Source: Candidatus Hecatella orcuttiae
Lineage (GTDB): Archaea > Thermoproteota > Bathyarchaeia > Hecatellales > Hecatellaceae
Assembly: GCA_002011035.2 (NCBI GenBank)
Contig: MTLY02000002.1
Location: 64,001 to 128,000, forward strand
Direction: 5' to 3'
Length of the DNA: 64,000 bases
The translations under genes and the position numbers were made by a program. Under the pieces are notes generated by a model, which saw only the letters and a program-made list of their open reading frames with translations, was not told the DNA's origin and did not search any database. Shown piece by piece: positions 16,621-50,536 of the stretch. Numbering within the stretch: the stretch's first letter is position 1; every line of letters starts with the position of its first letter.

Positions 16621-17757
16621 TCAGCGGTAGACTCCGTATTCTCTCGCAGCCTTCACTAGGGCTTTAAAGTTCTCCGAGGGGGTATCGGGATTGGTGTCGC
16701 AGCCCGGCATCACTATGAAACCTCCCCCCTCTGCTGCGTAGTCTATGTTCCTTTTTACCGTTGCTCTAACCTGATCCGGAGTGCCCTCCAGCATGACAGA
16801 AATGGGGTCTATGTTGCCGCATACGCAGACCCTGTCGCCGACCATTTTCTTCACCGCTTTAAGCATGATGCTGTAAGGGTCGTCCGGGTCAAGGGCTACG
16901 GATTCGCCGACCACTTCCTTCAGGAATTTCAAGCTTAGCGGCCTTGTCTTCACATCTCCATAGTTGGCATGGATAGCGCCTGGAGATCCTTTCGGTATTA
17001 CATCCGCCGCCATCTGCAGAATTCCCGTTGTGTCTCCGCAGGGATGGTTAATGGGTATCATTCCAGCTTTGGCTATGGCATCGCAGTCTCTTGCTAAATA
17101 GGGTTTCACAAATTTTTCATGCTGCTTTGGAGACGTAGCCTCGGTGGACGCTACAGGGTCAAGAAGAGCCACGGCATGTGCACGGCCTTTAAAGGCGGTA
17201 TGGTATTTGATGGAATAATCGGTTATCTTGTCTAGCAGTGAATGGACTTTTTCAGGTTCCTTCACCATGGCCCTGAACATGGATTCATGTCCCATAAGAT
17301 TACAGGCTGTGCTGTAGGGCCCTGATACGATGACAGCGACTGCTATATGGTCTCCAACTTTATCCATCAGAATTCCCGCCTCTTCGATAACAGTTCTCAT
17401 CCTGGGATGCTCCTCTGGAGCCGGGAAGGTTAGGTTGTCCACATCCTCCCATGACTTTATTACCCTGTAACGAGTGTCCACGATGGGCATGTGCTTGCTC
17501 CAGTAGTTTTTAGCCCCCATGGCCTTTGCTTCAACGAAGCAGCCGTCGATGCCTGCGACGACGATATCGTCACCGAAATTTTCATTGGCAGCAATCTTTG
17601 CCTTCGCCATCTTTTCAGCATCATCGATGGCTGTTTGGGGTCTTTCCCCAATCTCCCAAAGGGCTCTCGTGATGGCTAGGGTGGCTACCGGCACTTGGTC
17701 TGGCTGTCCTCTCTGCAACGCTGTGGCAACCCTTTCAAGACTGGTCATTTTAGCCAT
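16621..17757 (-). CDS. MtaA/CmuA-type methylcobalamin:thiol (CoM) methyltransferase, URO-D superfamily
   Basis: ERV..AL..G.PD.VP, VEAKAMG, zinc ligands HPC and PGC, GNIDP; downstream of a corrinoid gene. Confidence 0.82.
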   Translation of the reverse strand: MAKMTSLERVATALQRGQPDQVPVATLAITRALWEIGERPQTAIDDAEKMAKAKIAANENFGDDIVVAGIDGCFVEAKAMGAKNYWSKHMPIVDTRYRVIKSWEDVDNLTFPAPEEHPRMRTVIEEAGILMDKVGDHIAVAVIVSGPYSTACNLMGHESMFRAMVKEPEKVHSLLDKITDYSIKYHTAFKGRAHAVALLDPVASTEATSPKQHEKFVKPYLARDCDAIAKAGMIPINHPCGDTTGILQMAADVIPKGSPGAIHANYGDVKTRPLSLKFLKEVVGESVALDPDDPYSIMLKAVKKMVGDRVCVCGNIDPISVMLEGTPDQVRATVKRNIDYAAEGGGFIVMPGCDTNPDTPSENFKALVKAAREYGVYR

Positions 17758-17774
17758 GATCTTCACCCTCCTCT

Positions 17775-18440
17775 CTATCCTCCACGCCCCACTAGGCTTC
17801 GAGCTGCTTCCACTGCCCCAGGGCCGTCGGCCGCCCACTTGTCACATCCTATCTGCCCCGCCCATTTTTCATTGGTCGACCTTCCTCCGACTAAAATTTT
17901 AAAGTCTTTTCGAAGCCCTCTTTTCTCCAGTTCTTCCACCACGTCTTTCACGTGGTCCCTAGTCACACTCATAAGGCAGGAGAGGGCTATGATGTCCGCT
18001 TTGACATCGACCGCCTTATCGATTATTTTGCCAGCCGGCATATCAACTCCCATGTCTTCGACGGTAAAGCCTGAGCCCTGCAAAAACAACCTCACGATGT
18101 TTTTTCCAATATCGTGGATGTCTCCCTCCACGGTTGCCAGCACAATCTTTCCGATTTCTTCTTCTTTTTTCCCAACTTCTTTTCCTAGATGTTCCAGTAT
18201 AGGTTTCATCACAGCTTGCAATGTTTCTCCGCAGAGGACGAGTTCTGAAAGGAAATACTCGCCTGTTTCATATTTTTCACCTATAATCTTGGTAGCCGGC
18301 AATATCGCCTCCGATATCAAAAACCTTGCAGATGCACCTTCGCTCAGCGCCTTATCCGTCAATTCCACGGCTTTCTCCGTATCGTACTCTACCAATGTCT
18401 GTTTCAGATTTTCAATATATTTGATCAATCTTGGCACCAT
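17775..18440 (-). CDS. Methyltransferase corrinoid protein (MtaC/MttC-type)
   Basis: Cap domain (IGEKYE.GEYFLSEL) plus B12-binding GDIHDIGKNIV, S.LM, GG. Confidence 0.93.
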   Translation of the reverse strand: MVPRLIKYIENLKQTLVEYDTEKAVELTDKALSEGASARFLISEAILPATKIIGEKYETGEYFLSELVLCGETLQAVMKPILEHLGKEVGKKEEEIGKIVLATVEGDIHDIGKNIVRLFLQGSGFTVEDMGVDMPAGKIIDKAVDVKADIIALSCLMSVTRDHVKDVVEELEKRGLRKDFKILVGGRSTNEKWAGQIGCDKWAADGPGAVEAARSLVGRGG

Positions 18441-18629
18441 TATTCTACGTGAGGAAATCTTATATAAGTTTTATTTGCATAAATTTTATGAAGCTTTCAT
18501 CCAACATCTTCGCAAGCCTTTTGAATCATCATCGGACCTTTTTCCAAAACACGGCTTTAGGAAACCCTATGATTTTTAGCTCCATCAAGGAAAAGTTTTT
18601 ATCCCCTTCCAGCTTTAACCCTTTCCGCT

Positions 18630-18755
18630 GGAGGTTTACGGCCACAGCTTCCGGGGTAAGACCCGATCCCGTCCGATCTCGGAAGTGAATCCCGGAGGCG
18701 CCGCTCAATACTGCTCTCCGAAAGGGGGCGGGAAAGGGCGGTGCCGTGAACCTCC
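18630..18755 (+). rRNA. rrf: 5S rRNA (stand-alone)
   Basis: 126 nt; termini GGAGGTTTACGGC/GCCGTGAACCTCC pair (helix I); ACCCGATCCCGTCCGATCTCGGAAGTGAA loop B/C; TACTG...GAAA...GGGAAA loop E/D; TTTTTAT TATA-like box ~30 nt upstream. Confidence 0.9.
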
Positions 18756-18909
18756 CTTCTTCTGTGAACTTTTTAGAGGAATATCCACCTTACCTTTAGA
18801 GTTTACGCGTTTAGATTCCTCCAGGTTCACCCCCTTGTAGGAGGAAAATCTGGGGGATCCGGTTTTCTTCAGCATTATTTATTTAAGCCAATTGATCCAC
18901 TAGGCTTTG

Positions 18910-20148
18910 TCAATCGAGAGACTTTTGACGTTTTAACAAGTAAGCTAACAGCACAGCACCCACGGTGATGAACAAACAGAAAATCAAACCCGGCCGGTAG
19001 CTGCCTGTAACGTCAAAAGCATACCCCAGTAGGATGGGCCCTAGGATGCCGCCAACTCCGAAGGTGGTGGTCAGTGCCCCCAAGTTCAAACCTATCTTAT
19101 CCGGTCCAAAGGTTTCTTCCACAAGAGGCGCTACCAAAGCCCAAACACCAGCGGCGCTGAACCCGAATACGACCGCGAACACATACAGCATCCAAACATC
19201 GTCCACCCAGAGGAGCCCGACGAAGACAACCGCCTGAGCGGCTAAACATGCAACCAGCATGTTCTCTTTGCCGACTTTGTCGGAAACTGCCCCCACAGCA
19301 GGCGAGCCGGCGATGGTGCTACCGCCCATCAGCCCTAAAGCCAAAGCAGCCATGACGCTTGATATCCCAGCGTCCGTAGCAAAGGGGACAAGATGCACAA
19401 GCAAAGAAGTGAAGCAGAGACTTCCAAAAAAATAGATCCCGTAGAGTATCAAGAAAGACCTTGTAAAGACAGCTTGCTTTGTAGACAAGCTTACTTGCAA
19501 AGGATCCTGCTTCCTCGCTCGGACTTTTAGCCCATCCGAGTTTGCATGGTTTTTCATCAGAAAAGCCGCGAAGGTGATAATTCCGAGGAGTGCGAATCCC
19601 AAGGTTACTAAAGCTCCCCGCCATCCGTAGGTTGAAGTTAGGATTGCGGCTATAGGCGCCATGGAGAGAATGCCCAGCCCGTATCCGGAATTGGCAACAC
19701 CTACGGCTAGCCCCTTCTTTTCTTCAAACCACTTGACCACAGTCGAAATAGGCGGCACCCAAAGGCCGCTGGAGCCGAAGGAGGCTATACCCCAGAAAAG
19801 ATACAGATGCCAGACAGATTCTACGGAGGAAGACAGAATCAGCCCGAGGCCCACGAGAATACCTCCAAACATGATAACCTTCCTCGACCCGTGTTTGTCG
19901 CTTAGATGCCCCATGAGGACGGCTGAAAAACTGTGCGATATGGCATACAGCGAGAAGACAGAAGAGGCCACAGCCCTGCTCCAGCCGAACTCTTCCATCA
20001 AAGGTTTGAAGAACACACCGTAAACCTCGAAAACGCTGAAGGTGAAGAGGCACAGCGTCGTGGCCGCAACCACTACCCATCCGTAGAAAAAATTGGCCCT
20101 CAAAGAGCGTGAACTCCAAACTTCTGCTGAAGACTCAAAACTGTACAA
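18910..20148 (-). CDS. MFS transporter (OFA/monocarboxylate type)
   Basis: FYGWVVV, YGVFFKPL..EFGWSR, G.LSDKHG.R, KWF..KKGLAVG; about 12 TMs. Confidence 0.9.
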   Translation of the reverse strand: MYSFESSAEVWSSRSLRANFFYGWVVVAATTLCLFTFSVFEVYGVFFKPLMEEFGWSRAVASSVFSLYAISHSFSAVLMGHLSDKHGSRKVIMFGGILVGLGLILSSSVESVWHLYLFWGIASFGSSGLWVPPISTVVKWFEEKKGLAVGVANSGYGLGILSMAPIAAILTSTYGWRGALVTLGFALLGIITFAAFLMKNHANSDGLKVRARKQDPLQVSLSTKQAVFTRSFLILYGIYFFGSLCFTSLLVHLVPFATDAGISSVMAALALGLMGGSTIAGSPAVGAVSDKVGKENMLVACLAAQAVVFVGLLWVDDVWMLYVFAVVFGFSAAGVWALVAPLVEETFGPDKIGLNLGALTTTFGVGGILGPILLGYAFDVTGSYRPGLIFCLFITVGAVLLAYLLKRQKSLD

Positions 20149-20157
20149 AGAGGCTTA

Positions 20158-20841
20158 TTATATTTTCGGGAGAATCTTTGAGTATTTCTCCATCCTCATT
20201 TTCCTTCCTTCAGGCTGAATGAGCCAAGTCATCCAGCAGAGTTCGATGGGTCTATACCCACAAGTCAGAGCAAGCTCCTCAGCTTTTTTCACAAACTCGA
20301 GGTCGTCGTTCACAGGCTCTAAGCCGGCTTTCACCATGATCTCGTTCACCACTCTTTTGACTATTTTATCAGGCATCACCGTGTCCACACCGCCCATCAT
20401 CCTAAGATACTGAAATGTATTCACACCTACACCTTTGATCCTTCCAACGGGGTCCTCCCTCCATTTTTGGAGGTCGGCGCTTCTAGCCCAAGTCCTGAGG
20501 GCTTCCCTATCATCGCCCAGCGCTGAAAGGTGGGAAGCTATGGCCTTGGCCATAGCCCATGAGCGCCTGTTTCGCCACACTGCCTTCAGTTCCTCCACGT
20601 TCGCCTCAGATAGATCTTTGAGGTTTTTTATTTTACCACTTTCCACAAACTTCTCGCGGAACTCCTCCACCTTCGGAACAACGGCGGTGAAGTAGTTTAG
20701 ACCGATGGAGGTGAACGCGGCGTCCACCACCATCAAAACCACGCTTCCACCCCACCTCTCTGTTCTGAGACATCTACTGCAATGCTCCTTTATCCCGGAA
20801 ACTTTTTGCATGTAACCGTCAACAATTCTCTTCAGCAACAT
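20158..20841 (-). CDS. Hypothetical protein with a helix-hairpin-helix motif (HhH-GPD-like)
   Basis: IKGVGVNTFQYLRM.GG.DTVMPD. Confidence 0.6.
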   Translation of the reverse strand: MLLKRIVDGYMQKVSGIKEHCSRCLRTERWGGSVVLMVVDAAFTSIGLNYFTAVVPKVEEFREKFVESGKIKNLKDLSEANVEELKAVWRNRRSWAMAKAIASHLSALGDDREALRTWARSADLQKWREDPVGRIKGVGVNTFQYLRMMGGVDTVMPDKIVKRVVNEIMVKAGLEPVNDDLEFVKKAEELALTCGYRPIELCWMTWLIQPEGRKMRMEKYSKILPKI

Positions 20842-21000
20842 CGGGCACTCCTCGGACGAGAAAACCGTCTACTATGAGGGAGATATTTCTCCATTTTAAG
20901 TTGAAAAATTATATTTAAAACCTACAGCCGACAGTTACGAACGCATTTCATGGTGTGGGGGCTCGGGAAGCATTTGGAAGCCAGCTTGATACTTAGCTTA

Positions 21001-21774
21001 TTAGCTTACTCTCCTCCCACCCCATTCCTGCCTGTAATGGCACTCATAGCAGTTTTCACCGAATCTTTCCGCCCATTCCTCATGGCAATTGATACACACA
21101 TCAACACGGGGTTTTATCTTCTCAAAGCCGCCTTCAGTGTGGCAAAGATCACAGTCGATTTTAGAGTGAGGCGTTTCTGTGTGGAGATACGTGATCACAT
21201 GACATCGGTCACATTCGGCGAAGTTTAAGTTGCCATATTCATCAGGCAAATGCCCTATAGGTGAACCCCAATCTTCCCGAGGATGGCATTTGTAACAATT
21301 GGTGTCCATCATGTATTCTGGAAGATCCTCATGGCAGTGTATGCAAACATCCACGGTAGGCACCTCGATTCCAGGTCCATGCATACCATGGCATTGTCTG
21401 CAGGCGATCTCCGAATGAGCCTTAACCTCGTGAAGACTGTTTCGGAGATGACATTCTTCGCAGATGGCTGATATCTGAGGATTGGTAAAGTTTATGAGAA
21501 CAGGAACCTCGTATATGCCTAGAACATATCTTCCTACCATGATCACCGACTGGGGTCCGCTTTCATGGCACAGATGACACTCGACGAAACTTTGTCCGTG
21601 AACTGATATCTCCCAGTCCTGAACAAAAGGCTCCATTATATGACATGCGCTGCAGTAGCGTGGATTTGAGATGATGCCGGTCCCTATCTGGTAAGTTAAA
21701 ACCGTAAAAGTGAGAAAGCTGAAAACTAGAATCATAACTAGGGCAGTGATCCCTATTTTCGCCACTCGACGCAA
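21001..21774 (-). CDS. Membrane-anchored decaheme c-type cytochrome, NapC/NrfH-like N-terminus
   Basis: N-terminal TM; 10 CxxCH; first site CSACHIM followed by W..S.H. Confidence 0.88.
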   Translation of the reverse strand: MRRVAKIGITALVMILVFSFLTFTVLTYQIGTGIISNPRYCSACHIMEPFVQDWEISVHGQSFVECHLCHESGPQSVIMVGRYVLGIYEVPVLINFTNPQISAICEECHLRNSLHEVKAHSEIACRQCHGMHGPGIEVPTVDVCIHCHEDLPEYMMDTNCYKCHPREDWGSPIGHLPDEYGNLNFAECDRCHVITYLHTETPHSKIDCDLCHTEGGFEKIKPRVDVCINCHEEWAERFGENCYECHYRQEWGGRRVS

Positions 21775-21787
21775 TTGAACCCCCCGG

Positions 21788-22495
21788 TTACAATTTCTTC
21801 AATACTGTTGTGCAACATCTATCTCCGTCGATAATGCAGTCTTCGAGTTTTACGTCATAGTTTCCAAGGCATCTACTAATGGATCGAAAATAGGCAGCGT
21901 GACCTTCGCAGAGGGTCTTGGGGCTGAGCTTCGAGATTTCGTAGAAGATGCAGTTGAAAATTTTTATCACCAAGTCCCCCTCAGGCGTTCTAGTTATCGA
22001 AGGATAACAACCCATTTTTTCCAGTTCGCTGAGCACATGAGTGCAGAATTTCTCCTCGTTCCATTGCTGAATTCGATGCTGAAGGCTAAGGTTTCTCATC
22101 ATGTTCTCCCCCATTTTTTCTCCAATCTCCCGGAGGAGAGTCGCTGCATATTTTTCACCTTTCTTATCAATAAGACTTTCCAGCAATAATTGAGCCAGCA
22201 GTTGGTACTGACGCTGGGGGAAACCTAGATTCATATATCTGTTTGCAATTTTATAATACTGTTTGGGTCTGCCTGGGCTGCCTCTTTCCTCCAAAAAGGA
22301 CTCTACTAAACCTGCGTTTTCCAAGATTCTCATATGGTGGCGGAGGGTTATGGTTTTGAGGTTAGTCTTTCTCGAAAGTTCATCCAAGTCTAAAGGTCCA
22401 CAAGTTACAAGAAGGTCTAATATAAATCTTCTAGGTTTGATGGAAAGAGCCTTATAGGCTTCTTCGTCTTTCAGGTTTGAATTTGTTGAGAACAA
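21788..22495 (-). CDS. ArsR-type wHTH regulator with Cys-containing C-terminal sensor domain
   Basis: TLRHHMRILENAGLV, GSPGRP..YY, P.RQYQLLA, NC..., LC, C..DGDRCC. Confidence 0.8.
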   Translation of the reverse strand: MFSTNSNLKDEEAYKALSIKPRRFILDLLVTCGPLDLDELSRKTNLKTITLRHHMRILENAGLVESFLEERGSPGRPKQYYKIANRYMNLGFPQRQYQLLAQLLLESLIDKKGEKYAATLLREIGEKMGENMMRNLSLQHRIQQWNEEKFCTHVLSELEKMGCYPSITRTPEGDLVIKIFNCIFYEISKLSPKTLCEGHAAYFRSISRCLGNYDVKLEDCIIDGDRCCTTVLKKL

Positions 22496-22755
22496 ATACT
22501 CACAACATATTCTATTGAAGCCTGCTTCTTTTATTTTTTTCTCTTTAATTATATATATGGATAATATAATATTTATTTAAATTACAAATGAAAGAAAAAT
22601 AATTATTAAGCGGAAATATCAAGTTCACCTCGAGCTTAACTCCCGTGCCTCAGAGGATACGGTAGGTTTAAGTTGTTTTCGAAGATAGCAATAGAATATA
22701 TCAACACATGAGTTGAGAACAAAATCTTTAGAGACTAAGGGAACAGTGTTTTCCA

Positions 22756-23475
22756 TTGAAAGAACACACACCAGTTGTTATCGAGCACCTCGCCAAGCGC
22801 TACGGCTTTAGATATGCGCTCCTAGATGTTACGTTGAGCGTGGGCCGGGGAGAAGTTTTTGGCCTCCTCGGTCCCAACGGCGCAGGCAAAAGCACACTTT
22901 TGAAAGTGCTTGCCACACTGGTGTCTCCATCCGGCGGCTCTGTACTAATAGACGGCCTCAGCTTGAAGGATAGGAAGGTGGAACTCCGGAGGAGGATAGG
23001 CTACCTAGGCCACGAGCCTCTTCTTTACAGGGACCTAACAGGTGAGGAGAATTTGAAGTTCTACTATAAGTTCTACCATTCTTCGCCTCCAGAGTACGTT
23101 CAGGAAAAATTGGATGAGGTATTTGAGCTTTTGAGGATAGGGGGCTGGCGGCATGAACCTGTCAGAAACCTTTCCAGAGGATTTAAGAAGAGGTTCGACT
23201 TTGCCAGAGCCATCATTCATGATCCTGAACTTCTGCTTTTCGACGAACCTTTTTCAGGCCTTGACATGGAAAGCCTAGAGGTCGCCCGTGAATTTGTGCG
23301 AAGCATGGAAGGGGAAAAGACTATCATCATCTCCACCCATAACATCGAAGAAGCCAAGGAGCTTTGCAACAAGGCAGCACTCCTAGCAAAAGGGCGACTT
23401 ATCCGCTTGTTGGAGGCCGGCGATATAGACGAGGTAAGCCTCAAAGACGCCTTTAAGGGAGGAGCCGCCCGTTGA
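22756..23475 (+). CDS. ccmA: Heme ABC exporter ATPase CcmA
   Basis: GPNGAGKST, GYLGHEPLLY.DLT.EENL, LLLFDEPF; within the ccm cluster. Confidence 0.88.
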   Translation: MKEHTPVVIEHLAKRYGFRYALLDVTLSVGRGEVFGLLGPNGAGKSTLLKVLATLVSPSGGSVLIDGLSLKDRKVELRRRIGYLGHEPLLYRDLTGEENLKFYYKFYHSSPPEYVQEKLDEVFELLRIGGWRHEPVRNLSRGFKKRFDFARAIIHDPELLLFDEPFSGLDMESLEVAREFVRSMEGEKTIIISTHNIEEAKELCNKAALLAKGRLIRLLEAGDIDEVSLKDAFKGGAAR

Positions 23476-24164
23476 CAAGCCAAACTCTCCATGAGTTAAA
23501 ATGCGCCATCTACGTTGCATCCAAGGATCTTCTGGCTGAGTTGAGGAGGAAGTATGAAGTTTTTTCCATGCTCACTTTTGCCCTGATCTCTATCATAATA
23601 TTCAACTTCGCCTTCGGGATTTTCTCTGCCGCAGTGCACCAAGCGGTTCCCGCCATAATATGGATAATAATTTTGTTCGCAGGAATGTTCGGTTTTTCCA
23701 CGGTGTTCACGCGGGAAAGCGATCAAGGCACGCTCGACGGCTTGAGAATGCTTCCCATCTCCTCCCAGTCCATATTCTTGGGGAAAGTGGTCTACGGCTT
23801 CCTTCTGATGGGAGTCATCGAGGTGATTTTTGTTCCTTTGAGTATGGTGCTTTACAGCTACACCTTCACTTCCAGTTTCCTATTAACAGGATTGGTTTTC
23901 GTCCTAGGAACGTTGGACCTCGCTGTTGTGGGAGCTTTGGTCTCGGGTTTGACGATGTATACGGAGTCAAGGGCTCTGCTGATTCCTCTGTTGATGTTTC
24001 CGCTGGTGCTGCCGGTAGTTATCCCCCTCGTCATTCTGACCCAGAAACTCATCCTTGGAGTAGAGTTCTATTCTGTGCTGCCTGAGCTGAGGATGGTGGC
24101 TCTCACTTTGGCGGCGCTGGCAGCCGCCGCTCTCCTGCTTTTCGACTATGTCCTCCAAGATTGA
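23472..24164 (+). CDS. ccmB: Heme exporter permease CcmB
   Basis: KDL.AE.R, F.RE.D.GTL.GL, IFLGK, L.PLL.FPL..P. Confidence 0.88.
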   Translation: MTSQTLHELKCAIYVASKDLLAELRRKYEVFSMLTFALISIIIFNFAFGIFSAAVHQAVPAIIWIIILFAGMFGFSTVFTRESDQGTLDGLRMLPISSQSIFLGKVVYGFLLMGVIEVIFVPLSMVLYSYTFTSSFLLTGLVFVLGTLDLAVVGALVSGLTMYTESRALLIPLLMFPLVLPVVIPLVILTQKLILGVEFYSVLPELRMVALTLAALAAAALLLFDYVLQD

Positions 24165-24204
24165 AGCTGAAAGTTTCCACTGGAGAGACAGTTGGCGAGA
24201 CGGT

Positions 24205-24339
24205 TTATTCCCCTTGCTCTTTCAGAGTGTGTAAGACCTTTCTGAGAGATGAAACTTTGCGGTCTAACCATAAGACATACAGGAAGATAACACCCCAGAA
24301 GATCATGGACATCGTCAGTAAGGTTTCTAAAAGCCCCAT
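24205..24339 (-). CDS. ccmD: CcmD-like small membrane protein (44 aa)
   Basis: MGLLETLLTMSMIFWGVIFLYVLWLDRKVSSLRK...; starts 2 nt after the ccmC stop; single TM plus charged tail. Confidence 0.65.
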   Translation of the reverse strand: MGLLETLLTMSMIFWGVIFLYVLWLDRKVSSLRKVLHTLKEQGE

Positions 24340-24341
24340 TT

Positions 24342-25037: not shown

Positions 25038-25039
25038 TT

Positions 25040-28739: not shown

Positions 28740-28751
28740 CCATCTACTAGC

Positions 28752-32112: not shown

Positions 32113-32238
32113 TCGAAGATTTTTTTTATATATATAATAATTTATAAATTTAAATTATTGTGCAAAAATTTATATATCTAATAATAGTAATAAAAGAAAC
32201 GTTAGAAACCCTGCCAAAAAAGGAAGGGGGTATATACG

Positions 32239-38652: not shown

Positions 38653-38739
38653 CTCAGCCAAAGCCCGGTGTTTCTTAAAAAGACGGGGTTTAGAATCCCT
38701 CATTATATATGTTCAAAAAGCCTTAAAACACTATCGTTT

Positions 38740-43550: not shown

Positions 43551-44456
43551 ATGGAGTTCTTAACCGCCGCCATCGTCCTCGGTGTTTTCGCCTTTATTGT
43601 AAGCTTAGGAGCTATCATCGGCTGGTTTGAAGACCTAGAATCCGACACAGGCTCACAGTCAAATCCCAATTCCCAAGTTCAACTAGCCCCTCAGATGGGA
43701 GTGCGTCATCGAATCTACAACAAGGCGATTTCCGGGGAACCCATATCCAACGGGCTGTGGGGAGCGACGGCGGGAACTGTGTTCACCGTGTTATGGTACA
43801 GTTTCCAGGTTCACCCCCTCATCGCCTTAGCCGTCGCTTCATCTTTCACCACGTTGGTTCACATTTCTCTAGCGGTTTCCTCTCATCTGGGGAGAACGGC
43901 CAGCGTGAACATCTTCAAGCAACCCCTTTACTTGGATGTTGTTACAAGCCATCTTCCCCTCATCGCCTCCCACGGCTTCATCGTCAGCACGGCGCTGGTT
44001 GCCTTAGCCTACATTTTCTACAATGTTTTCTTCAGCTTGGAGGGGCTGCTCGGCTACCCTATGCCCATACCCTTCCTCAGCTTTCTGCTGGGAATAATGG
44101 CGGGAGCCGTGGGCTCTTCGACAGGGGACATTCACTACGGTGCAGAGAGGCAGTTTCAGCATTTTCCCTTCGGGGAAGGGGTTCCCAGCAAAAACTTCGG
44201 GCAGATAACCACCAAGGCGGAGGTAGGCTGGAGAACCAGCATAGATGTGACCTATTTCTGCGCCAAATACGGCGGCCCCATGGCCGGCTTCTGCTACGCG
44301 TTGATACTGCTGGTGGATAACCTACGCCTTTTGATAGGAAACTTCACCGTAATCCTGTTAAGCCTCATCACAGGGCTGATAATCTTAGCTGCGCTCATCG
44401 GTTTCAACCGGTATTTGGAGGTTTGGGCTCGGAAAAAGTTCGGTCCCTATGCTTGA
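43551..44456 (+). CDS. mtrE: H4MPT S-methyltransferase subunit E
   Basis: EDLESD.GSQSNPNSQVQLAPQMG..HRIYNKAISGEP, STGDIHYGAER, FCAKYGGP. Confidence 0.96.
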   Translation: MEFLTAAIVLGVFAFIVSLGAIIGWFEDLESDTGSQSNPNSQVQLAPQMGVRHRIYNKAISGEPISNGLWGATAGTVFTVLWYSFQVHPLIALAVASSFTTLVHISLAVSSHLGRTASVNIFKQPLYLDVVTSHLPLIASHGFIVSTALVALAYIFYNVFFSLEGLLGYPMPIPFLSFLLGIMAGAVGSSTGDIHYGAERQFQHFPFGEGVPSKNFGQITTKAEVGWRTSIDVTYFCAKYGGPMAGFCYALILLVDNLRLLIGNFTVILLSLITGLIILAALIGFNRYLEVWARKKFGPYA

Positions 44457-44470
44457 GAAGGTGTCTTCCC

Positions 44471-45211
44471 ATGATCGATGTAATGTTGCTGGTCCTGTTC
44501 ATGATAGGGCTTGGAGGAATCCTAGTTTGCGTAGGCGTCTTCCTCATTCCCATAGGCGGCGCCCCAGCGGCCATGTCTACAGCGACAGGCGTTGCCACGG
44601 GATGCGAAATGATAACCATGGGCGCTGGTGTAACCGGCCTGTTTTTGGCGGCAGCCTTCTACACCAAAAGTCTCATGTTCGTGATCATCACCGCCGGCGT
44701 AAGCTCCGCCCTCATGCTGGCGATCACCATGCTCTTCACCAACCTCATCGTCATCTTCGGCAAAGGAGTTCCCCCTGCCTTCGCCACCAAAGAGCGAGAC
44801 CCCATAACAGGGGACCCGATAAAACCCTACGTGACCCCGGGAACCGTCGGCCACGGTGTCCCCACCGCCCCCTATCTGGGCGGGGTGCTGGGTAGCTTTC
44901 TGGCTGGAGCGGGGGGAGCCTTGGCCTTCACAGCCATGTACCGGTTCAGCAGCGGTGCGACGTTGGCGGAGTTTGTAGGAGTCCTTCCCCAACCTGCCCC
45001 CCAAGTGGCAGCCATGGCTCTTTCCGTGATAACGGCGGTGGGTCTATACCTCATCAACGCTAACATAGCAGCTTACAGCATCCGAGGCGTCATCGAGTCT
45101 TGGCTGGATCCGAAATTTTCCAAGCTGCCCAGAGTTATCGCCGCCTGCTTCTCAGCTTCGATTCTTTTCGGAGTTCTCATCTTGTTGGTTTCAATAGGGG
45201 GTGTTGGATGA
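44471..45211 (+). CDS. mtrD: H4MPT S-methyltransferase subunit D
   Basis: P.GGAPAAM.TATGV.TG, G.G.TGL, DPITG...PYV.PGT.GHG.PT, DPKF. Confidence 0.94.
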   Translation: MIDVMLLVLFMIGLGGILVCVGVFLIPIGGAPAAMSTATGVATGCEMITMGAGVTGLFLAAAFYTKSLMFVIITAGVSSALMLAITMLFTNLIVIFGKGVPPAFATKERDPITGDPIKPYVTPGTVGHGVPTAPYLGGVLGSFLAGAGGALAFTAMYRFSSGATLAEFVGVLPQPAPQVAAMALSVITAVGLYLINANIAAYSIRGVIESWLDPKFSKLPRVIAACFSASILFGVLILLVSIGGVG

Positions 45212-45215
45212 AAAC

Positions 45216-46019
45216 ATGGGCCATGTGACGAAAGGGGCTCCTAAGAAGCCTACCATAAATCCGAAATACTTAGCCATCATCGGAGTCGCCGTAGGGTTAC
45301 CCGGTGTCTATCTGGGGAAGTTTTCCCCCCTAATCCCCGCAGCGCTGGCCGTGCCCGCCCTTGTTTGGGCAGCAGACGCCATTCGCCGCATAGCCGGCTA
45401 CGGGTTAGGCACCGGAGTGCCCTCCATAGGTAATCTGGCCATAGGGATGGGTGTCCTCACAGCGCTGGTGGGGCTGAGATATGAGCCTGCGTTGGGCGTG
45501 GCTTTAGCGGCTCTCTGGGGCATTATGTACGGGGTTATCATCGGCAGATTGAAGATTTTGGAGATCCCTGTCTTCACCCGCTGCATAACCGAGCTGTCTG
45601 TAGGGGCCTCCGTGGGTTTGATGGCTCTCCTCAGCGCTGCTGCAGGAGGGTATACGGTGGATTTCTTCCAAGGGAGGCTTATGCCCATGATATTCTTGAC
45701 AGGGTTCGTCGTCGCCGTGTTTTGGGCCACCAGCATGACCATCTTCCACCCCTTCAACGCCTGTCTGGGGCCTGGGGAAAAGCAGACTCGAACCTTAAAG
45801 CTAGCCGTTGGTGTGGCGGGAATAGACGTAACTCTCGCCGGGATCTCCGCCCTAGGAGTGGCGGGGTTGAATCCTTCTATCATGACGTTGGAAGCGGCTG
45901 TGGGCATTATCTTCCTAGGGGCAGCGGTGTGGATTGGTGGATACTATGCTTTCATAAAGGCGGCCATAAAAGAATCAGCTTCGGTGATGTGGACAGGTTT
46001 TCCGGAGGCAAAGAAGTAG
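45216..46019 (+). CDS. mtrC: H4MPT S-methyltransferase subunit C
   Basis: W.ADA.R..A.YGLGTGVPSIG, HPFNACLGP.E...RTL. Confidence 0.95.
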   Translation: MGHVTKGAPKKPTINPKYLAIIGVAVGLPGVYLGKFSPLIPAALAVPALVWAADAIRRIAGYGLGTGVPSIGNLAIGMGVLTALVGLRYEPALGVALAALWGIMYGVIIGRLKILEIPVFTRCITELSVGASVGLMALLSAAAGGYTVDFFQGRLMPMIFLTGFVVAVFWATSMTIFHPFNACLGPGEKQTRTLKLAVGVAGIDVTLAGISALGVAGLNPSIMTLEAAVGIIFLGAAVWIGGYYAFIKAAIKESASVMWTGFPEAKK

Positions 46020-46029
46020 AGGGAGAGCT

Positions 46030-46368
46030 ATGGCGGCTGAAATATCTAAAGAATACGACGTGATCTTAGACGCTGAAAACGGCCTCGTGGGAGAAGCTCG
46101 GATGGATGTGGTCACTCTTGACATCATGCCCTTGGAAAAAAGTTTGAGGGAACTGGAAAAGTTGGCGGAGGAGCTTCTCTCCAGCCTCAACCCAGCTTCA
46201 GAGCCTCTGTTTTCAAGGCCTCTCCGAGGAGGCATATACAGGAGAGCGGGGCTTCTGACCAATATCTTCCTAGGCTTTCTCATCGGCTGCCTGTTCTTCG
46301 CCATTATAATATTCACCTACTTGGCGGTTACGAGCCCTGAAGCCTTGAAGGCTGTGGGAGGAGGATAG
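46030..46368 (+). CDS. mtrB: H4MPT S-methyltransferase subunit B
   Basis: LE..AE.L..SL.P, R.G.Y..AG.LTN...GF..G. Confidence 0.9.
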   Translation: MAAEISKEYDVILDAENGLVGEARMDVVTLDIMPLEKSLRELEKLAEELLSSLNPASEPLFSRPLRGGIYRRAGLLTNIFLGFLIGCLFFAIIIFTYLAVTSPEALKAVGGG

Positions 46369-46372
46369 TTCC

Positions 46373-47155
46373 ATGGGCCAAAAAGAAGGGGGCGAGACCG
46401 CGGAGCCCAAGCCTAAGGTGAATAAGGTTCCAGTGTCAGAGTGGCCTGTGGCTCCCGGAGACTATTACGTAGGCAACCCGGAGGGATGCGTGGCTGTGGT
46501 AACCCTTGCCTCCGCAGCCTTGATTAAACCCCTCCTCGAAAACCGGAACGTGGCTCTCTGTGGGGAATGTAAAACGGAAAACGTTGGGATTGAGAAGGTT
46601 ATCTTGAACACCATCTCCAACCCCAATATTCGATTTGTAGTGGTGTGCGGAACCGAGGTTGCAGGCCACGTGACCGGGGGATGCTTCAAGGCCCTGTGGG
46701 AATTCGGCGTTGACCCTGAAACCAAAAAGATCATAAAGGCTCCGGGGGCCATTCCCTACATTGAAGCCGTACCTCCTGAAGGCGTGGAGAGGTTCAGAAA
46801 ACAGGTTCAAATGGCAGCCATGGTGGATGTGGAAGACCTAGGAGTCATCCTAGCGAAAATAGAGGAGCTGGCAGCCCAAGACCCCGGCGCCTTCGGAGAG
46901 CCTCCGATGATCATTAAGATAGCGGAGAAGGTGGAGGAAAAAGCCGCTGTGAGAATTCCCCTGATGGTTTCCCTTCCCCCAGCCGTCGACTCTATGAGAA
47001 AAGTCGTCGGGGATGTGGAATACAAGGTAAGGCTTCTGACAAGGGAGAGAAGACTGACCATGGGTGTGTACTCCACGAGGCATTTAGGTTTCGCTCTGGG
47101 CTTTTTCGCTGCCTTAGGTACCTTGTTTCTGCTCCTCTTAGCTGGATTGGGGTGA
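46373..47155 (+). CDS. mtrA: MtrA corrinoid domain fused to an MtrF-like stalk/anchor
   Basis: WP..PGDY.VG.P..CVAVVTLAS, KTEN.GIEK, ISNPNIRF, EV.GH.TG; C-terminus DVEYKVRLLTRERRL..GV...GFA.GF is MtrF-like. Confidence 0.9.
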   Translation: MGQKEGGETAEPKPKVNKVPVSEWPVAPGDYYVGNPEGCVAVVTLASAALIKPLLENRNVALCGECKTENVGIEKVILNTISNPNIRFVVVCGTEVAGHVTGGCFKALWEFGVDPETKKIIKAPGAIPYIEAVPPEGVERFRKQVQMAAMVDVEDLGVILAKIEELAAQDPGAFGEPPMIIKIAEKVEEKAAVRIPLMVSLPPAVDSMRKVVGDVEYKVRLLTRERRLTMGVYSTRHLGFALGFFAALGTLFLLLLAGLG

Positions 47156-47156
47156 G

Positions 47157-47378
47157 ATGGTGGAGAAAGCCAAACGTAGGGCTGTAGAAACCTTGTACAC
47201 GCCGGAAATGGCTCTCATTGAGGCTCGGATACATGACCTGAAGACAAGGTTGCTTCTCATCGGAAGAGAGAACCGTTTTGCTGCAGGTTTTTACGGAGGC
47301 TTGGTTAAAGGATTCATGTGGGGCATGATCATCTCCCTGCTACTGTTCGGAGTTATATTCGCGTATTTCATACCGTGA
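47157..47378 (+). CDS. Mtr stalk subunit resembling the isolated MtrA C-terminal anchor (occupies the mtrF position)
   Basis: PEMALIEARI...IGRENRFAAGFYGG.VKG...G. Confidence 0.75.
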   Translation: MVEKAKRRAVETLYTPEMALIEARIHDLKTRLLLIGRENRFAAGFYGGLVKGFMWGMIISLLLFGVIFAYFIP

Positions 47379-47389
47379 GGAGATACTGA

Positions 47390-47623
47390 ATGGTCGGTAA
47401 ACCGGACGGGGAAGAAGTAGTGGTTCCGACGGTAGTTACACCACCGGAGATAAAGGAGTTCCATGATAGACTGGACGCCGTCGATGAGAAGATCGAGTTC
47501 GTCCTCGGGGAGGTTGCCTTGAGGAGAGGTCTAACCGCTGGAACGTGGATGGGTTTCCTCTACGGCCTAGCGCTAGGCCTCACCATCATCACCTTCCTAA
47601 AATACGTGTTACATTGGATGTAG
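47390..47623 (+). CDS. mtrG: H4MPT S-methyltransferase subunit G
   Basis: VP.V, RLD..DEKIEF..GE...R.G...G...G.LYG. Confidence 0.9.
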   Translation: MVGKPDGEEVVVPTVVTPPEIKEFHDRLDAVDEKIEFVLGEVALRRGLTAGTWMGFLYGLALGLTIITFLKYVLHWM

Positions 47624-47632
47624 GTGATATGC

Positions 47633-48574
47633 ATGTTCAGGTTTGAAAGGGAACAAACCATAGTGGAAGTTGGAAAAGTGAAGTTCGGAGGACAGCCAGG
47701 CGAGCTGCCCACGCCCTTGGCGGGCACAATTTTCTACAAAGGGCATAAAATCATCACCGACCCGAAAAGCGGAGAATTCGACAGAGCTGCGGCTGAAGCC
47801 CTGTTGAAAAAGCAGGAAGAGCTTTCAGAACTCACAGGAGTTCCGCAGGTGGTTCAGGTTTTTGCGGAGGCCCCTGAAGTCATGATCAAGTATCTTGATT
47901 TCGTTTCAAACTTCACCGATGCCCCCCTCCTCATAGACTCCACAGACGCCACCACCCGGCTTCAAGGGGCTAAACATGCAGCGGAAGTGGGGCTACAAGA
48001 TAGGGCGATCTTCAACTCCATCAATGTTTCCATCACCGAACAGGAGATGGCTGTGCTCAGAGAAACCAGCCTGCCTGCTATTGTCTTAGCTTTTAACCCT
48101 AAGGATCAGACAACGGTAAAAGGGCGGATGGAAGTGATGACTACTGGAGCGGGTTTAATGGAAAAAGGCCTCCTAGACATTGCGAAAGAACTCACTGAAA
48201 AAATCCTTATCGACGTGGCAGCTACGGCTTTAAGCTTAGGGGCAGGGCCTTCTGAGAGGGCAACGTACGTGATGAAGACTAAATTCGGGCTGCCGGTGGG
48301 CACAGGCATACACAACGCTGTTTCAGCTTGGACTTGGCTTAAAAAATACAAGAAACAAATCCCTGAAGGAAAAGACGTTTACAGAGTCTGCGATATCTCC
48401 AGCTCCGTTGTCCATGTCCTATGCGGAGGAGATTTCATCCTTTACGGGCCTATTGAAAACGCTCCCTACATCTTCCCAACCGTAGCCTTCGCCAACATCA
48501 TGGTGGCCGAGGCTGTTAAGGAGGGCTTGGGAACGAAGCCGGCTGAGGAGCATCCCGTCAACAAACTCTGCTAA
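47633..48574 (+). CDS. mtrH: H4MPT S-methyltransferase subunit H
   Basis: MFRFEREQ, GGQPGE.PT.L.GTIFY, LIDST, NSIN, G.G.HN..SAW.WL, GDF.LYGPIENA. Confidence 0.96.
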   Translation: MFRFEREQTIVEVGKVKFGGQPGELPTPLAGTIFYKGHKIITDPKSGEFDRAAAEALLKKQEELSELTGVPQVVQVFAEAPEVMIKYLDFVSNFTDAPLLIDSTDATTRLQGAKHAAEVGLQDRAIFNSINVSITEQEMAVLRETSLPAIVLAFNPKDQTTVKGRMEVMTTGAGLMEKGLLDIAKELTEKILIDVAATALSLGAGPSERATYVMKTKFGLPVGTGIHNAVSAWTWLKKYKKQIPEGKDVYRVCDISSSVVHVLCGGDFILYGPIENAPYIFPTVAFANIMVAEAVKEGLGTKPAEEHPVNKLC

Positions 48575-48656
48575 AGCTCTTTCCTCCTTTTTTGTTTACG
48601 GTTTTTCAGCTAGATTTATAACCCTTAGGCTGAAATAATAGCTCAGAACTTCTCAG

Positions 48657-49025
48657 GTGTTTTATATGAGTTGGAGAGTGGCCAGTGAAATAAGGCAGAG
48701 GACAGGGCACCGGTTCAACATAGTCATCCAAAGCCTGCCTGAAGACAGCGAAGCGGCCATGACCTTCGAGGAGCTTTTCAGAAGAGTGAAGGCCAAAGAG
48801 TTTCTCGGGGATGAAGCCGAACTTGCGGAGAATCTGGATGCTTTAGAAAAAAGAAGAGAAATAGGCGTGAAGACAGGACCCGACCAAGTCAAGAGATATT
48901 GGGCAACTCCTAGAGGAAAACTGGAGACTAGAAAAAGAAAAGCCCTCATAAAACTTCACACCCAAGAGCTTACGGAAAATGAAGTGGCTGCCTTAGAAAG
49001 AATGGCCTCTAAACCTAAAGCCTAG
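48657..49025 (+). CDS. Small winged-helix-like hypothetical protein
   Basis: L..L..LE....I.......RYWATPRG wing pattern. Confidence 0.55.
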   Translation: MFYMSWRVASEIRQRTGHRFNIVIQSLPEDSEAAMTFEELFRRVKAKEFLGDEAELAENLDALEKRREIGVKTGPDQVKRYWATPRGKLETRKRKALIKLHTQELTENEVAALERMASKPKA

Positions 49026-49129
49026 AAGCGCTAAACGGCTAGGCGAGCTTGAAGGGCCCTGTTCCGTAACTCTCACCGTTTCCGGTTTTTATTAAAATTT
49101 ATAGAAAGCCAAAGCCTCGGCGGCGTGAA

Positions 49130-50536
49130 ATGAAACCTCATTCAAACGCGGACAGCTTGAAAAAACCGCGGCTGGTGGTGGCGGGGGCTCAGAGCAGCTC
49201 AGGGAAGACCACAGTTACCTTAGGCCTCGCGGGGCTTCTCATGAAAAGAGGCTACCTAGTTCAGACCTTCAAAGTAGGCCCTGACTACATCGACCCCAGC
49301 TATCACACTGGCATCACCCGGAGGCCGTGCCGAAACCTCGATTCATGGATGGTTCCTCTGCCCCATCTGCTGGAGATATTCGCTCACGGCATGGAAGAAG
49401 CTGACATAGCCTTGGTGGAGGGTGTCATGGGCCTTTACGACGGTATCCACGGCGCAGGGGAGGCTGGAAGCACAGCGCAGGTAGCTAAAAGATTGAAGGC
49501 GCCTGTGATCCTTGTAGTTGACGCTCACAGCATGGCGAGGTCCGCTGGAGCTTTAGTTTTAGGCTACAAAAGCTTCGACCCCCAGCTCAGCCTCAGGGGG
49601 GTGATTCTGAACAGGGTCTCTTCCCTCTCCCACGCTCAATGGTGCAAGGAGGCGATCGAGAAAGCAGCTAAGATCCCCGTCGTAGGCGCTATACCCAAGA
49701 GCGGGGAAATAGAAATGCCTGAACGCCATTTGGGGTTGATCCCTGTAAAGGAAAAAGAAAGCCTAGGAGGTTATTTTTCAAAGATAATCTCCCACATGGA
49801 GTCCCACGTGGACTTGGCCATGATCTTGGACGTCGCTGCTTCAGCCCCAAAATTGCCTGAAGTGAAGAAGGTGCTTTTTCCGTCTACTTCTCTTCCTAAA
49901 AAAGTGAGGGTAGGCGTCGCCTTAGATGAAGCCTTCAATTTCTACTACCAAGAAAATTTGGACTTGTTGAGTCTCCACGGCGCTGAGCTTGTGCCCTTCA
50001 GCCCCATCCACCACCGGAAGCTTCCCGAGGTAGACGGCCTATACTTGGGAGGAGGATTCCCGGAAGTGCTTCCCAGAGAACTGGAAGCTAACAAGACCGT
50101 GAGAAACGAGATAAGGAAGGCGGCAGAGGACTCCATGCCTGTCTACGCGGAGTGCGGAGGCTTGATGTATCTCACGAGATCCATCACCGATTTCAACGGC
50201 CGCACGTATAGGATGGTGGGTATTTTCGACGGCAGGACCCTTATGACCAAGAAGCTCTGCCTAAACTACACTTTAGCCAAAGTGGTGAAAGGCCACCTGC
50301 TGGCTGGTCCGGGAGCGAAACTGAAGGGCCATGAGTTTCACTATTCAAAGATCGTGGAAATCCCCCGGGACGCCGTCTTCGCCTACAGCATGGAGAAAGG
50401 CTACGGCATCGACGGGAAACATGACGCTTGGAACCTGTATAATACCTACGCCTCCTACATGCATGTCCACTTCGCCCACAGCCTGAAATTGGTCAGAAAT
50501 TTTATTGCACACTGCCAGAAATACAGCAAACACTGA
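49130..50536 (+). CDS. cbiA: Cobyrinate a,c-diamide synthase (CbiA/CobB family)
   Basis: SSSGKTT, FKVGPDYIDP, EGVMGLYDG, ERHLGL, AECGGLMYL, GHEFHYS, Y.H.HF. Confidence 0.9.
   Translation: MKPHSNADSLKKPRLVVAGAQSSSGKTTVTLGLAGLLMKRGYLVQTFKVGPDYIDPSYHTGITRRPCRNLDSWMVPLPHLLEIFAHGMEEADIALVEGVMGLYDGIHGAGEAGSTAQVAKRLKAPVILVVDAHSMARSAGALVLGYKSFDPQLSLRGVILNRVSSLSHAQWCKEAIEKAAKIPVVGAIPKSGEIEMPERHLGLIPVKEKESLGGYFSKIISHMESHVDLAMILDVAASAPKLPEVKKVLFPSTSLPKKVRVGVALDEAFNFYYQENLDLLSLHGAELVPFSPIHHRKLPEVDGLYLGGGFPEVLPRELEANKTVRNEIRKAAEDSMPVYAECGGLMYLTRSITDFNGRTYRMVGIFDGRTLMTKKLCLNYTLAKVVKGHLLAGPGAKLKGHEFHYSKIVEIPRDAVFAYSMEKGYGIDGKHDAWNLYNTYASYMHVHFAHSLKLVRNFIAHCQKYSKH

Follow-up and report, generated by a model that had tools for sequence, protein, structure and literature searches.

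Possible methyl-group oxidation with a respiratory outlet in an Mcr-free archaeon of the Hecatellales

What would an archaeon do with a complete operon for the methyltransferase complex Mtr if it has no methyl-coenzyme M reductase (Mcr) and carries an island of cytochrome genes on the same stretch of DNA? This question is raised by 64,000 nucleotides of the Candidatus Hecatella orcuttiae genome (contig MTLY02000002.1, positions 64,001 to 128,000), referred to below as the window and numbered from its first letter. A sequence-only reading of the window had proposed that methyl oxidation is wired to cytochrome-based respiration in a non-euryarchaeal archaeon. The gene sets behind this proposal were found (Mtr, the genes of the tetrahydromethanopterin [H4MPT] branch, and the cytochrome island) and Mcr was not; its links through Mer, quinone, and a methyltransferase to coenzyme M (MT2) are weak. 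We tentatively suggest, with a confidence somewhat short of even, that this uncultured, Mcr-free member of the Hecatellaceae may use methanogen C1 machinery as a line of methyl intake and oxidation with a respiratory outlet. The genome studied (G000) comprises 1.75 Mb in 3 contigs, is 97.12% complete with 4.25% contamination, and holds the window within a 481-kb contig. Long open reading frames (ORFs) of the window were scanned against Pfam and NCBIfam, with NCBIfam cut-offs applied per family, and comparisons were made with 41 relatives, with the 14 genomes of the same family including G000, and with 401 sampled Bathyarchaeia genomes.

All eight Mtr subunits, A to H, are encoded together in the order mtrEDCBAFGH at 43551-48574 (+). 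The Pfam scores were 320, 222, 185, 80, and 222 bits for MtrE, MtrD, MtrC, MtrB, and MtrA, respectively (43551-47155, +). The small genes mtrF (47157-47378, +) and mtrG (47390-47623, +) scored 34.9 bits against TIGR02507 (cut-off 25) and 52.6 bits against TIGR01149 (cut-off 50.65), and mtrH (47624-48574, +) scored 372 bits by Pfam and 406 bits against TIGR01114 (cut-off 271.4). By NCBIfam, MtrA reached 240.1 bits, slightly under its cut-off of 249.15. The full mtr operon of the sequence-only reading was thus borne out by both databases. Its gene order, small genes included, is kept in the relatives G002, G010, and G012 at 46 to 74% identity, and in G013 a short contig carries mtrE and mtrD alone. 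In a contig search with a four-sequence MtrE alignment, MtrE of the window was 69 to 70% identical to records titled Candidatus Hecatellales archaeon, followed by Nezhaarchaeota (60%), Methanomethylicia (54%), and euryarchaeal methanogens (44 to 51%). Because of these matches and a GTDB family shared with the Candidatus Hecatellales records, the organism is placed as a member of a Hecatellales family of Bathyarchaeia, and the view that it is a non-euryarchaeal archaeon holds.

The window had been read as lacking mcr, and the same now applies to the genome: McrA (PF02249) and McrB (PF02241) were each found in none of the one genome searched, 97.12% complete, in a search that was positive in both of two methanogen control genomes and that did not cover McrG. 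A cluster of H4MPT genes lies at C3:566-573 kb and consists of a fusion of a FwdC-like (GXGXG) domain with Mch, FwdA, FwdB/D-type genes, Mtd, and Ftr. The scores were 813 bits for FwdA (cut-off 392.75), 195.6 for Ftr, 393.7 for Mch, and 409.8 for Mtd. An Mrp antiporter adjoins this cluster. The CODH/ACS complex (carbon monoxide dehydrogenase and acetyl-CoA synthase) is complete as judged by CdhABCDE homologues, with CdhC, CdhD, and CdhE near the H4MPT cluster and CdhA and CdhB on contig C2. Of the expected H4MPT branch, Fwd, Ftr, Mch, and Mtd are therefore present, and canonical Mer is not; only a divergent homologue was found.

This Mer-like protein gave a best hit of 136 bits against a cut-off of 348.7, and 164.9 bits against PRK02271 (cut-off 276). 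Its six best matches among Protein Data Bank (PDB) structures are all Mer, at 82 to 114 bits, and other F420 enzymes score at most 38 bits. Canonical Mer occurs in 4 of the 14 family genomes and MtrE in 5, never together, and the divergent form is found in four of the five MtrE genomes. A good example is G002, an McrA-bearing genome that is 100% complete and has the divergent form only. Because the nearest structures are all Mer and the distribution complements that of the canonical enzyme, we infer that the divergent protein may be the working Mer of this lineage. It is encoded by the first of two tandem luciferase-like genes, which are followed by a gene for a UbiX-like flavoprotein (C3:446229-448114), and this arrangement with its Mer-like form recurs in G002, G010, and G013. 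The divergent protein would then replace the canonical enzyme in every Mtr-bearing family member in which a Mer was found, which is a separate lead for enzymology.

The respiratory side of the question rests on the cytochrome island. The cytochrome b and multihaem cytochromes recognized in the sequence-only reading were confirmed, and a third multihaem gene was added to them. The cytochrome b gene (29324-30415, +) is of the FdnI/HydC (Ni_hydr_CYTB) type, with 50.1 bits against PF01292, a sub-cut-off 50.3 bits against TIGR01583, and no match among solved PDB structures. The stop codon of this gene overlaps with the start of that for a cytochrome c with 17 CXXCH motifs (30412-32112, +), which combines Cytochrome_C7, Cytochrom_C552, and paired-CXXCH domains (Pfam) with a helical tail matching NrfA (PDB 2J7A, 48 bits) and a C-terminal membrane anchor. 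The next gene (32266-34149, +) encodes an NrfA-family cytochrome whose best PDB match is OcwA (6I5B, 125.1 bits, E value of 3e-35, in two stretches). NrfA structures match residues 352 to 530 of this product at 33 to 55 bits, and Pfam matches are to Cytochrome_C554 and Cytochrom_C552. It has seven CXXCH motifs and no CXXCK, short of the nine haem sites of OcwA. Coiled-coil families match residues 512 to 593, and this segment, together with a C-terminal anchor, suggests that the haem head stands off from the membrane. The added gene (21001-21774, -) encodes a membrane-anchored cytochrome c of the NrfH/NapC type with 10 CXXCH motifs (TIGR03153, 33.2 bits, sub-cut-off), a candidate quinol dehydrogenase.

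Between these cytochrome genes lies a System I maturation set. The genes ccmA and ccmB occupy 22756-24164 (+; ABC_tran, 109 bits; CcmB, 95.7 bits), and ccmC, a CarboxypepD_reg-like gene, ccmH, ccmF, and ccmE occupy 24342-29141 (-; Pfam). Thus, CcmA, CcmB, CcmC, CcmE, CcmF, and CcmH were all identified by Pfam, and CcmD was not identified in the island by the same scan. Only four ORFs of the genome contain at least two CXXCH motifs; three are the island cytochromes and the fourth is DnaJ. Since all multihaem cytochromes of the genome sit in the island, the Ccm system would serve the island. The gene for a regulator of the ArsR helix-turn-helix type (21788-22495, -; HTH_5, 29.5 bits) with a weak MetOD1-like C terminus (20.7 bits, sub-cut-off) precedes the maturation genes, and hemA for glutamyl-tRNA reductase (34195-35544, +; GlutR_N, 148.6 bits, plus two further domains) follows the cytochromes. 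The nearest labelled relatives of CcmF are from Bathyarchaeia (48 to 54% identity) and then from Hydrothermarchaeota, Halobacteriota, and Desulfobacterales (46 to 47%). The ccm cluster resembles those of G063, G248, and G212 (CcmF, 45 to 49% identity), where the cytochromes beside ccm differ from those of G000. No donor of the island could be named from the CcmF relatives and the ccm cluster comparison.

The island is lower in G+C (0.46 to 0.48 at 20 to 32 kb) than the remainder of the window (0.49 to 0.54), and this, together with the 4.25% contamination of the genome, was the reason for checking its junctions. One 23.7-kb contig of the Logan assembly of run X1 spans 16001-34541 with no differences, run X2 has separate contigs, even in depth, across 18424-22521 and 32253-34541, and pieces are present throughout the stretch in runs X6 and X7. 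Because the Logan contigs bridge both junctions, the island is no assembly artefact. X1 and X2 may be the source samples, and these data therefore show consistent assembly rather than independent replication.

The combination of Mtr with a cytochrome maturation system is rare. Among the 41 relatives, MtrA was found in 10, McrA in 1 (G002), and CcmF in G000 only. Among the 401 Bathyarchaeia, CcmF_C was found in 35 (28 over cut-off) and in none of the 13 other family members, and MtrE was found in 5, all of this family; MtrE and CcmF occur together only in G000. A haem-copper oxidase is likewise limited to 1 of the 14 family genomes, that of G000. The family PF00346 marks one complex-I-type locus in G000, compared with two to four loci in G002, G010, G012, and G013, and several of the extra loci in these Mtr-bearing relatives have hydrogenase-type N termini. 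As a separate observation, a complete mtr operon of G002 (C1:267429-272461) lies about 24 kb from McrA (C1:245172-245555, 212 bits), which makes this genome a candidate Mtr-bearing, methane-metabolizing member of the Hecatellales.

Beyond the island, the genome encodes further parts of a respiratory chain. A complex-I cluster about 21 kb upstream of the window has NuoA, NuoB, NuoC, NuoD, NuoH, NuoI, and NuoJ and three antiporter-type subunits (L, M, and N), and contains no NuoEFG. An unlinked FrhB/FpoF-like protein is encoded at C2:210.7 kb (PRK09325, 275.9 bits; cut-off 269). A COX1-family (haem-copper oxidase) gene lies 7.4 kb before the window, and a NarGHJ-like cluster that also encodes cupredoxins and a NapH-like protein lies on C2 directly beside CdhAB. 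Four UbiA-family genes were found, one for a haem O synthase and one MenA-like, and a methyltransferase of the UbiE/MenG family (198.8 bits; cut-off 158.35) is the only quinone-related protein over its cut-off. An Hdr inventory suggested by the sequence-only reading turned up an HdrABC-MvhADG cluster, kept in G000 in the order HdrCBA-MvhDGA. The energy-metabolism genes are loosely concentrated within about 175 kb of contig C2: complex I at 36.5-46.7 kb, the COX1-family oxidase at 55-56.6 kb, the cytochrome island at 85-98 kb, the mtr operon at 107-112.6 kb, CdhAB and the Nar-like cluster at 157-170 kb, and the FpoF-like gene at the position given above.

The capacity for methyl transfer is spread across the genome. 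By genome-wide tblastn, URO-D is represented by 6 loci and corrinoid proteins by 14; MtrA was found once, and a further MtrH-like gene exists besides mtrH. Among 145 ORFs around the URO-D and corrinoid loci that were run against Pfam, one MttB is interrupted (split) by an in-frame stop and three are unsplit, MtbB is split in this way twice, and MtmB occurs as one split and seven further unsplit ORFs (one of them cut at a locus edge); another unsplit MtmB is encoded elsewhere. The split MttB, MtmB, and two MtbB are predicted to be pyrrolysine-type methylamine methyltransferases, and the unsplit paralogues would be pyrrolysine-free. The ORFs of these loci also include PylC/PylD-type genes, RACo, DUF2114, and many linked transporters, and several aldehyde:ferredoxin oxidoreductases and amidohydrolase/xanthine-dehydrogenase-type genes lie beside the methyltransferases. 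Three URO-D paralogues outside the window exceed MtaA/CmuA or PRK06252 cut-offs (best, 380 bits) and are candidates for true MT2 enzymes. Genes for coenzyme M synthesis appear to be present, judging from a cysteate synthase (TIGR03844, 537.5 bits; cut-off 324.9) and a fused ComDE (alpha, 184.9 bits, over the cut-off of 147.95; beta, 213.6 bits, under that of 221.5), which lie side by side at C3:671331-673705 as in the Methanosarcina-type pathway. ComD is over cut-off in 1 of the 14 family genomes, G000, and none was seen in G002, which bears Mcr. ComA was found in none of the 14, a result that says little because the Methanosarcina control was also negative.

Within the window, methyl transfer is represented by a corrinoid methyltransferase of the URO-D/MtaA-CmuA superfamily (16621-17838, -; Pfam URO-D, 197.6 bits) and its cognate corrinoid protein with B12-binding and B12-binding_2 domains (17775-18440, -; Pfam and NCBIfam), which is one of the 14 loci. 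The methyltransferase likely starts at residue 28, giving 378 amino acids. Its best PDB match is MtaA (4AY7, 88.5 bits), and in that alignment it retains His-x-Cys and a downstream Cys, with an insertion of about 45 residues between them; we take HxC...C to be the zinc-binding motif. It is under all NCBIfam cut-offs, for instance, 183.1 bits against 235.4 for TIGR01463, 146.5 against 400 for MtaA, and 123.8 against 600 for MtbA. Among 31 relatives at 58 to 84% identity, three name an organism (Haloarculaceae, Halodesulfurarchaeum, and Ardenticatenaceae), and these three are not known to use coenzyme M; in this sample, close orthologues are not confined to coenzyme M users. Upstream of the pair stands a 5S rRNA gene (18634-18752, +; Rfam RF00001, 73.1 bits, gathering score 38), alone and on the opposite strand to its neighbours, with no 16S or 23S gene nearby in the window. 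It is followed by a gene for a major facilitator superfamily (MFS) transporter of the oxalate/formate-lactate type (18910-20148, -; MFS_1, 199 bits; SfMCT, 237 bits, under the cut-off of 320). An mtpCAP-like operon of this transporter, the corrinoid protein, and the methyltransferase was considered and dropped, the 5S rRNA gene intervening.

Taken as a methyl-oxidizing respiration, these genes would work as follows. Substrate-specific methyltransferases, namely, pyrrolysine-type MttB, MtbB, and MtmB and many pyrrolysine-free paralogues, would load corrinoid proteins, and MtaA-type enzymes would hand the methyl group to coenzyme M. Mtr, which is reversible, would be driven by a sodium gradient to move it from coenzyme M to H4MPT. 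Part of the methyl-H4MPT would go to acetyl-CoA via CODH/ACS, and the remainder would be oxidized to CO2 by the divergent Mer and then by Mtd, Mch, Ftr, and Fwd. F420H2 and reduced ferredoxin would be reoxidized at the 11-subunit complex-I-type pump, with the lone FrhB/FpoF-like protein as input. A putative membrane carrier would feed the Nar/Nxr-like nitrate reductase, the COX1-family enzyme as a putative gNOR-type oxidase, and the island, where the cytochrome b and the 10-CXXCH NrfH-like cytochrome would act as quinol oxidases that pass electrons to the 17-CXXCH cytochrome and on to the OcwA-like terminal reductase. The latter, held outside the membrane by its stalk, would reduce extracellular acceptors or nitrite and hydroxylamine. 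The Mrp antiporter beside fwd would turn the proton gradient into the sodium gradient consumed by reverse Mtr. What was observed is that the genes are present and intact and how they are distributed; the direction, the carriers, and the coupling are our interpretation of them, and the coupling of methyl oxidation to the cytochromes would rest on shared carriers only. In a fuller version, the organism would be a methylotroph of the Thermoproteota that respires and naturally lacks Mcr, with a methyl line that runs only in the oxidative direction and with electrons passed to nitrate, nitric oxide, and extracellular acceptors through modules that the family otherwise lacks; we regard this version as possible, well short of even.

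However, several points weigh against this respiratory reading. First, 9.4 kb separate the island from mtr, and this interval holds genes for lysyl-tRNA synthetase (LysRS), TATA-binding protein (TBP), and arginyl-tRNA synthetase (ArgRS), along with a SepSecS/aminotransferase-type gene and a DUF169 gene. The promoters of the mtr, island, and methyltransferase genes share AT-rich 11-mers only and nothing regulator-like. Second, no MetF was found in the genome as a substitute for Mer, and because MetF is absent and the canonical Mer cut-off is unmet, Mer activity is only predicted. Third, quinone synthesis is the weakest link. The futalosine pathway proteins MqnA and MqnD were found in none of 41 genomes, in a search that did not include the classical Men genes, and the MenA-like protein scored 127.6 bits against a cut-off of 277. 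Of the expected quinone-reducing complex and quinone pathway, the first is thus represented by a complex-I-type module without NuoEFG and the second is not borne out. The FrhB-like protein is also under the FpoF cut-off (173.5 versus 475 bits). Fourth, the only NrfA-family matches are two of the island cytochromes, both under NCBIfam cut-offs, and no family-level search for NirK, NirS, or NrfA was made. Fifth, the pair at 16621-18440 that had been read as corrinoid protein and MT2 is present as a pair, and its methyltransferase is probably no MT2 to coenzyme M, in view of its sub-cut-off scores (183 versus 235.4 bits) and its relatives labelled as haloarchaea and Chloroflexi; the MFS gene is parted from this pair by the 5S rRNA gene. 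Finally, the island is low in G+C and unique within the family, and it may have been acquired recently and work with other electron donors. HdrABC-MvhADG, CODH/ACS, and the several aldehyde:ferredoxin oxidoreductases leave room for redox balancing of an acetogenic or H2-linked kind or for the use of organic donors.

The main rival develops this last point. It holds that the organism is a methylotrophic mixotroph or acetogen whose respiration is uncoupled from methyl metabolism: Mtr and the H4MPT branch would disproportionate methyl groups, mostly to acetyl-CoA or acetate, with a minority oxidized to supply electrons for the carbonyl group. The island, the Nar-like enzyme, and the putative gNOR would then serve other donors such as aldehydes, purine-type compounds, or H2, or would detoxify nitrite and nitric oxide. 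The complete set of CdhABCDE homologues, the HdrABC-MvhADG cluster, and the oxidoreductase and amidohydrolase/xanthine-dehydrogenase-type genes beside the methyltransferases fit this explanation, which also matches the reading proposed for Candidatus Hecatella in the available text of PMC9635834. A detoxifying role is consistent with the slow reduction of nitrite and hydroxylamine by OcwA, which its authors read as possible detoxification in the parts available of PMC6703420. However, G000 has one PF00346 locus, compared with two to four, candidate membrane-bound hydrogenase-type complexes, in its Mtr-bearing relatives, and it alone has Ccm, a haem-copper oxidase, and multihaem cytochromes. 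In addition, reverse Mtr costs an ion gradient, of which a respiratory chain is the simplest supply. We therefore regard uncoupled acetogenesis or mixotrophy as a serious rival and, on its own terms, rather unlikely.

The next rival takes the island and mtr as coincidental neighbours. In this view, the organism is a heterotroph that lately picked up the island as a module for extracellular electron transfer or for the reduction of nitrogen oxides, and its Mtr is a little-used remnant of its methanogen ancestry. This rival would explain the low G+C of the island, the lack of CcmF in all 13 other family genomes, and the housekeeping genes that separate the island from mtr, and Adam et al. use the word 'remnant' for Mtr in the Hecatellales (PMC9635834, available text). 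Against this, the eight mtr genes are intact and 46 to 74% identical to those of relatives, coenzyme M synthesis genes appear to be retained, and heavy use of methyl transfer is indicated by a genome of 1.75 Mb with RACo, pyrrolysine genes, and 14 corrinoid proteins. Mere coincidence is improbable for these reasons. Operation in the reductive direction, with CO2 or CO reduced to methyl-H4MPT, Mtr as a forward sodium pump, and MtaA/MtsA-like enzymes unloading methyl-coenzyme M to a thiol or some other acceptor much as CO-grown Methanosarcina acetivorans makes methyl sulfides, would agree with the reversibility of Mtr, the six MtaA-family paralogues (several with no assigned specificity), and CODH, but it is highly improbable given a methyltransferase set made up mainly of the demethylating types MttB, MtbB, and MtmB with importers and a Nar-like enzyme, putative gNOR, and cytochromes that suit oxidative metabolism.

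Several parts of the respiratory reading have counterparts in known systems. Candidatus Methanoperedens and other anaerobic methanotrophs of the ANME-2 group couple reverse methanogenesis to nitrate or metals via cytochrome b and multihaem cytochromes. They share with G000 an Mtr and H4MPT branch open to oxidative use, an Fpo-type complex (putative in G000), a cytochrome b beside large multihaem cytochromes, and a nitrate reductase of non-canonical type, and homologues labelled Methanoperedens and ANME-2 were found at 31 to 32% identity. However, ANME archaea start from methane and need Mcr, whereas G000, without Mcr, would start from methylated compounds. Archaeoglobus fulgidus, a non-methanogen that grows on methoxylated aromatics and sulfate, oxidizes corrinoid-borne methyl groups via the H4MPT branch in an anaerobic respiration; its route, which relies on sulfate, is not known to involve coenzyme M or Mtr, unlike that of G000, in which coenzyme M and Mtr would be central.

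The nearest demonstrated physiology is that of Methanosarcina acetivorans, which grows on methanol and anthraquinone-2,6-disulfonate (AQDS) with methanogenesis inhibited and in dependence on the multihaem cytochrome MmcA, according to the accessible parts of Holmes et al. 2019 (PMC6703419; bioRxiv 10.1101/590380). Corrinoid methyltransferases, coenzyme M, reverse Mtr, H4MPT-type oxidation, a multihaem exit, and the lack of methane are common to both, proposed from genes in the case of G000. M. acetivorans is a euryarchaeal methanogen with a chemically blocked Mcr, methanophenazine, Rnf, and canonical Mer, whereas in G000, a member of the Thermoproteota, Mcr is genetically absent, the cytochrome architecture is unrelated, and nitrate- and nitric oxide-type reductases are present. 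OcwA itself is a cell-surface terminal reductase of Thermincola potens that functions in extracellular electron transfer and also reduces nitrite and hydroxylamine, as stated in the consulted portion of PMC6703420. The 32266-34149 product shares with it a haem core that is c554-like and NrfA-like and a C-terminal helical bundle; OcwA has nine haems, whereas this product has seven CXXCH motifs and carries in addition a coiled-coil stalk and, at the C terminus, a membrane anchor.

For the Hecatellales, a complete Mtr without Mcr has been described, and methyl groups of methanol and methylamines were proposed to enter an oxidative Wood-Ljungdahl pathway via Mtr (PMC9635834, in the text available). 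In the same text, Adam et al. 2022 assign the membrane potential of Hecatella to an Mbh/Mrp-like hydrogenase and describe an Mrp syntenic with fwd and an Hdr/Mvh-like complex. G000 agrees with this account of Candidatus Hecatella orcuttiae and the Hecatellales (o__B25) in Mtr without Mcr, the H4MPT pathway, the methyltransferases, the Mrp-fwd neighbourhood, and Hdr/Mvh. It differs from that hydrogenase-based account in Ccm, the cytochromes, the Nar-like enzyme, and the haem-copper oxidase; the available text of PMC9635834 names cytochromes and nitrate reductase for other organisms only. No account of respiratory methylotrophy in Bathyarchaeia was found in the literature at the level of titles and abstracts. 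The respiratory wiring therefore looks new, whereas the idea of an Mtr that, in the absence of Mcr, feeds an oxidative Wood-Ljungdahl pathway has already been published for the Hecatellales.

Other genes of the region deserve brief mention. The cbiA gene noted in the sequence-only reading was recovered at 49130-50536 (+) as a cbiA/cobB gene for cobyrinic acid a,c-diamide synthase (TIGR00379, 520.9 bits; cut-off 261.4). Its product scored higher, at 539.4 bits, against the F430 enzyme CfbB (NF033195), under the cut-off of 560. In a genome without Mcr, the enzyme could be left over from F430 synthesis or just belong to cobamide synthesis. Within the ccm operon, the CarboxypepD_reg-like gene (25040-26275, -; Pfam) encodes a membrane protein of 411 amino acids with a C-terminal coiled coil. 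Homologues adjoin ccmF in G063 and G248 at 28% identity, and the protein may belong to cytochrome c maturation as a component specific to this lineage and so far undescribed. The SepSecS/aminotransferase-V-type gene near ArgRS (40854-41996, -; Pfam) possibly encodes SepCysS, and a normal cysteinyl-tRNA synthetase is encoded at 50623-51984 (+; Pfam); the organism may have two routes to Cys-tRNA. The TBP ORF (37780-38703, -; Pfam) has 307 amino acids, and its two TBP repeats begin only at about residue 113; either the protein has a long extension at its N terminus or the start was called too early. At about 35871-35974 (-), a tRNA-like stretch shows CCA, a T-arm, and an acceptor stem, and it seems to contain an additional segment close to the D-loop. 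ARAGORN and Rfam at the gathering threshold made no tRNA call in 14000-52000, this stretch included, and Logan contigs break there with loose ends. It may be an intron-containing tRNA.

Methylated amines and their kin are usually seen as non-competitive substrates that end as methane. If the proposed respiration is true, methyl groups would instead end as CO2 through respiration of nitrate, nitric oxide, or minerals, diverting carbon from methane in subsurface and marine sediments, and organisms of this kind would take up methylamines ahead of methanogens, a sink so far overlooked. Cytochrome-based respiration would be extended to the Mtr-bearing branch of Bathyarchaeia, and the organism would be a natural counterpart to Methanosarcina respiring methanol with Mcr blocked. 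It would also represent a living intermediate between a methanogen-type lineage and an anaerobic respirer, and thereby a test case for the loss of methanogenesis and its replacement by respiration in archaeal evolution.

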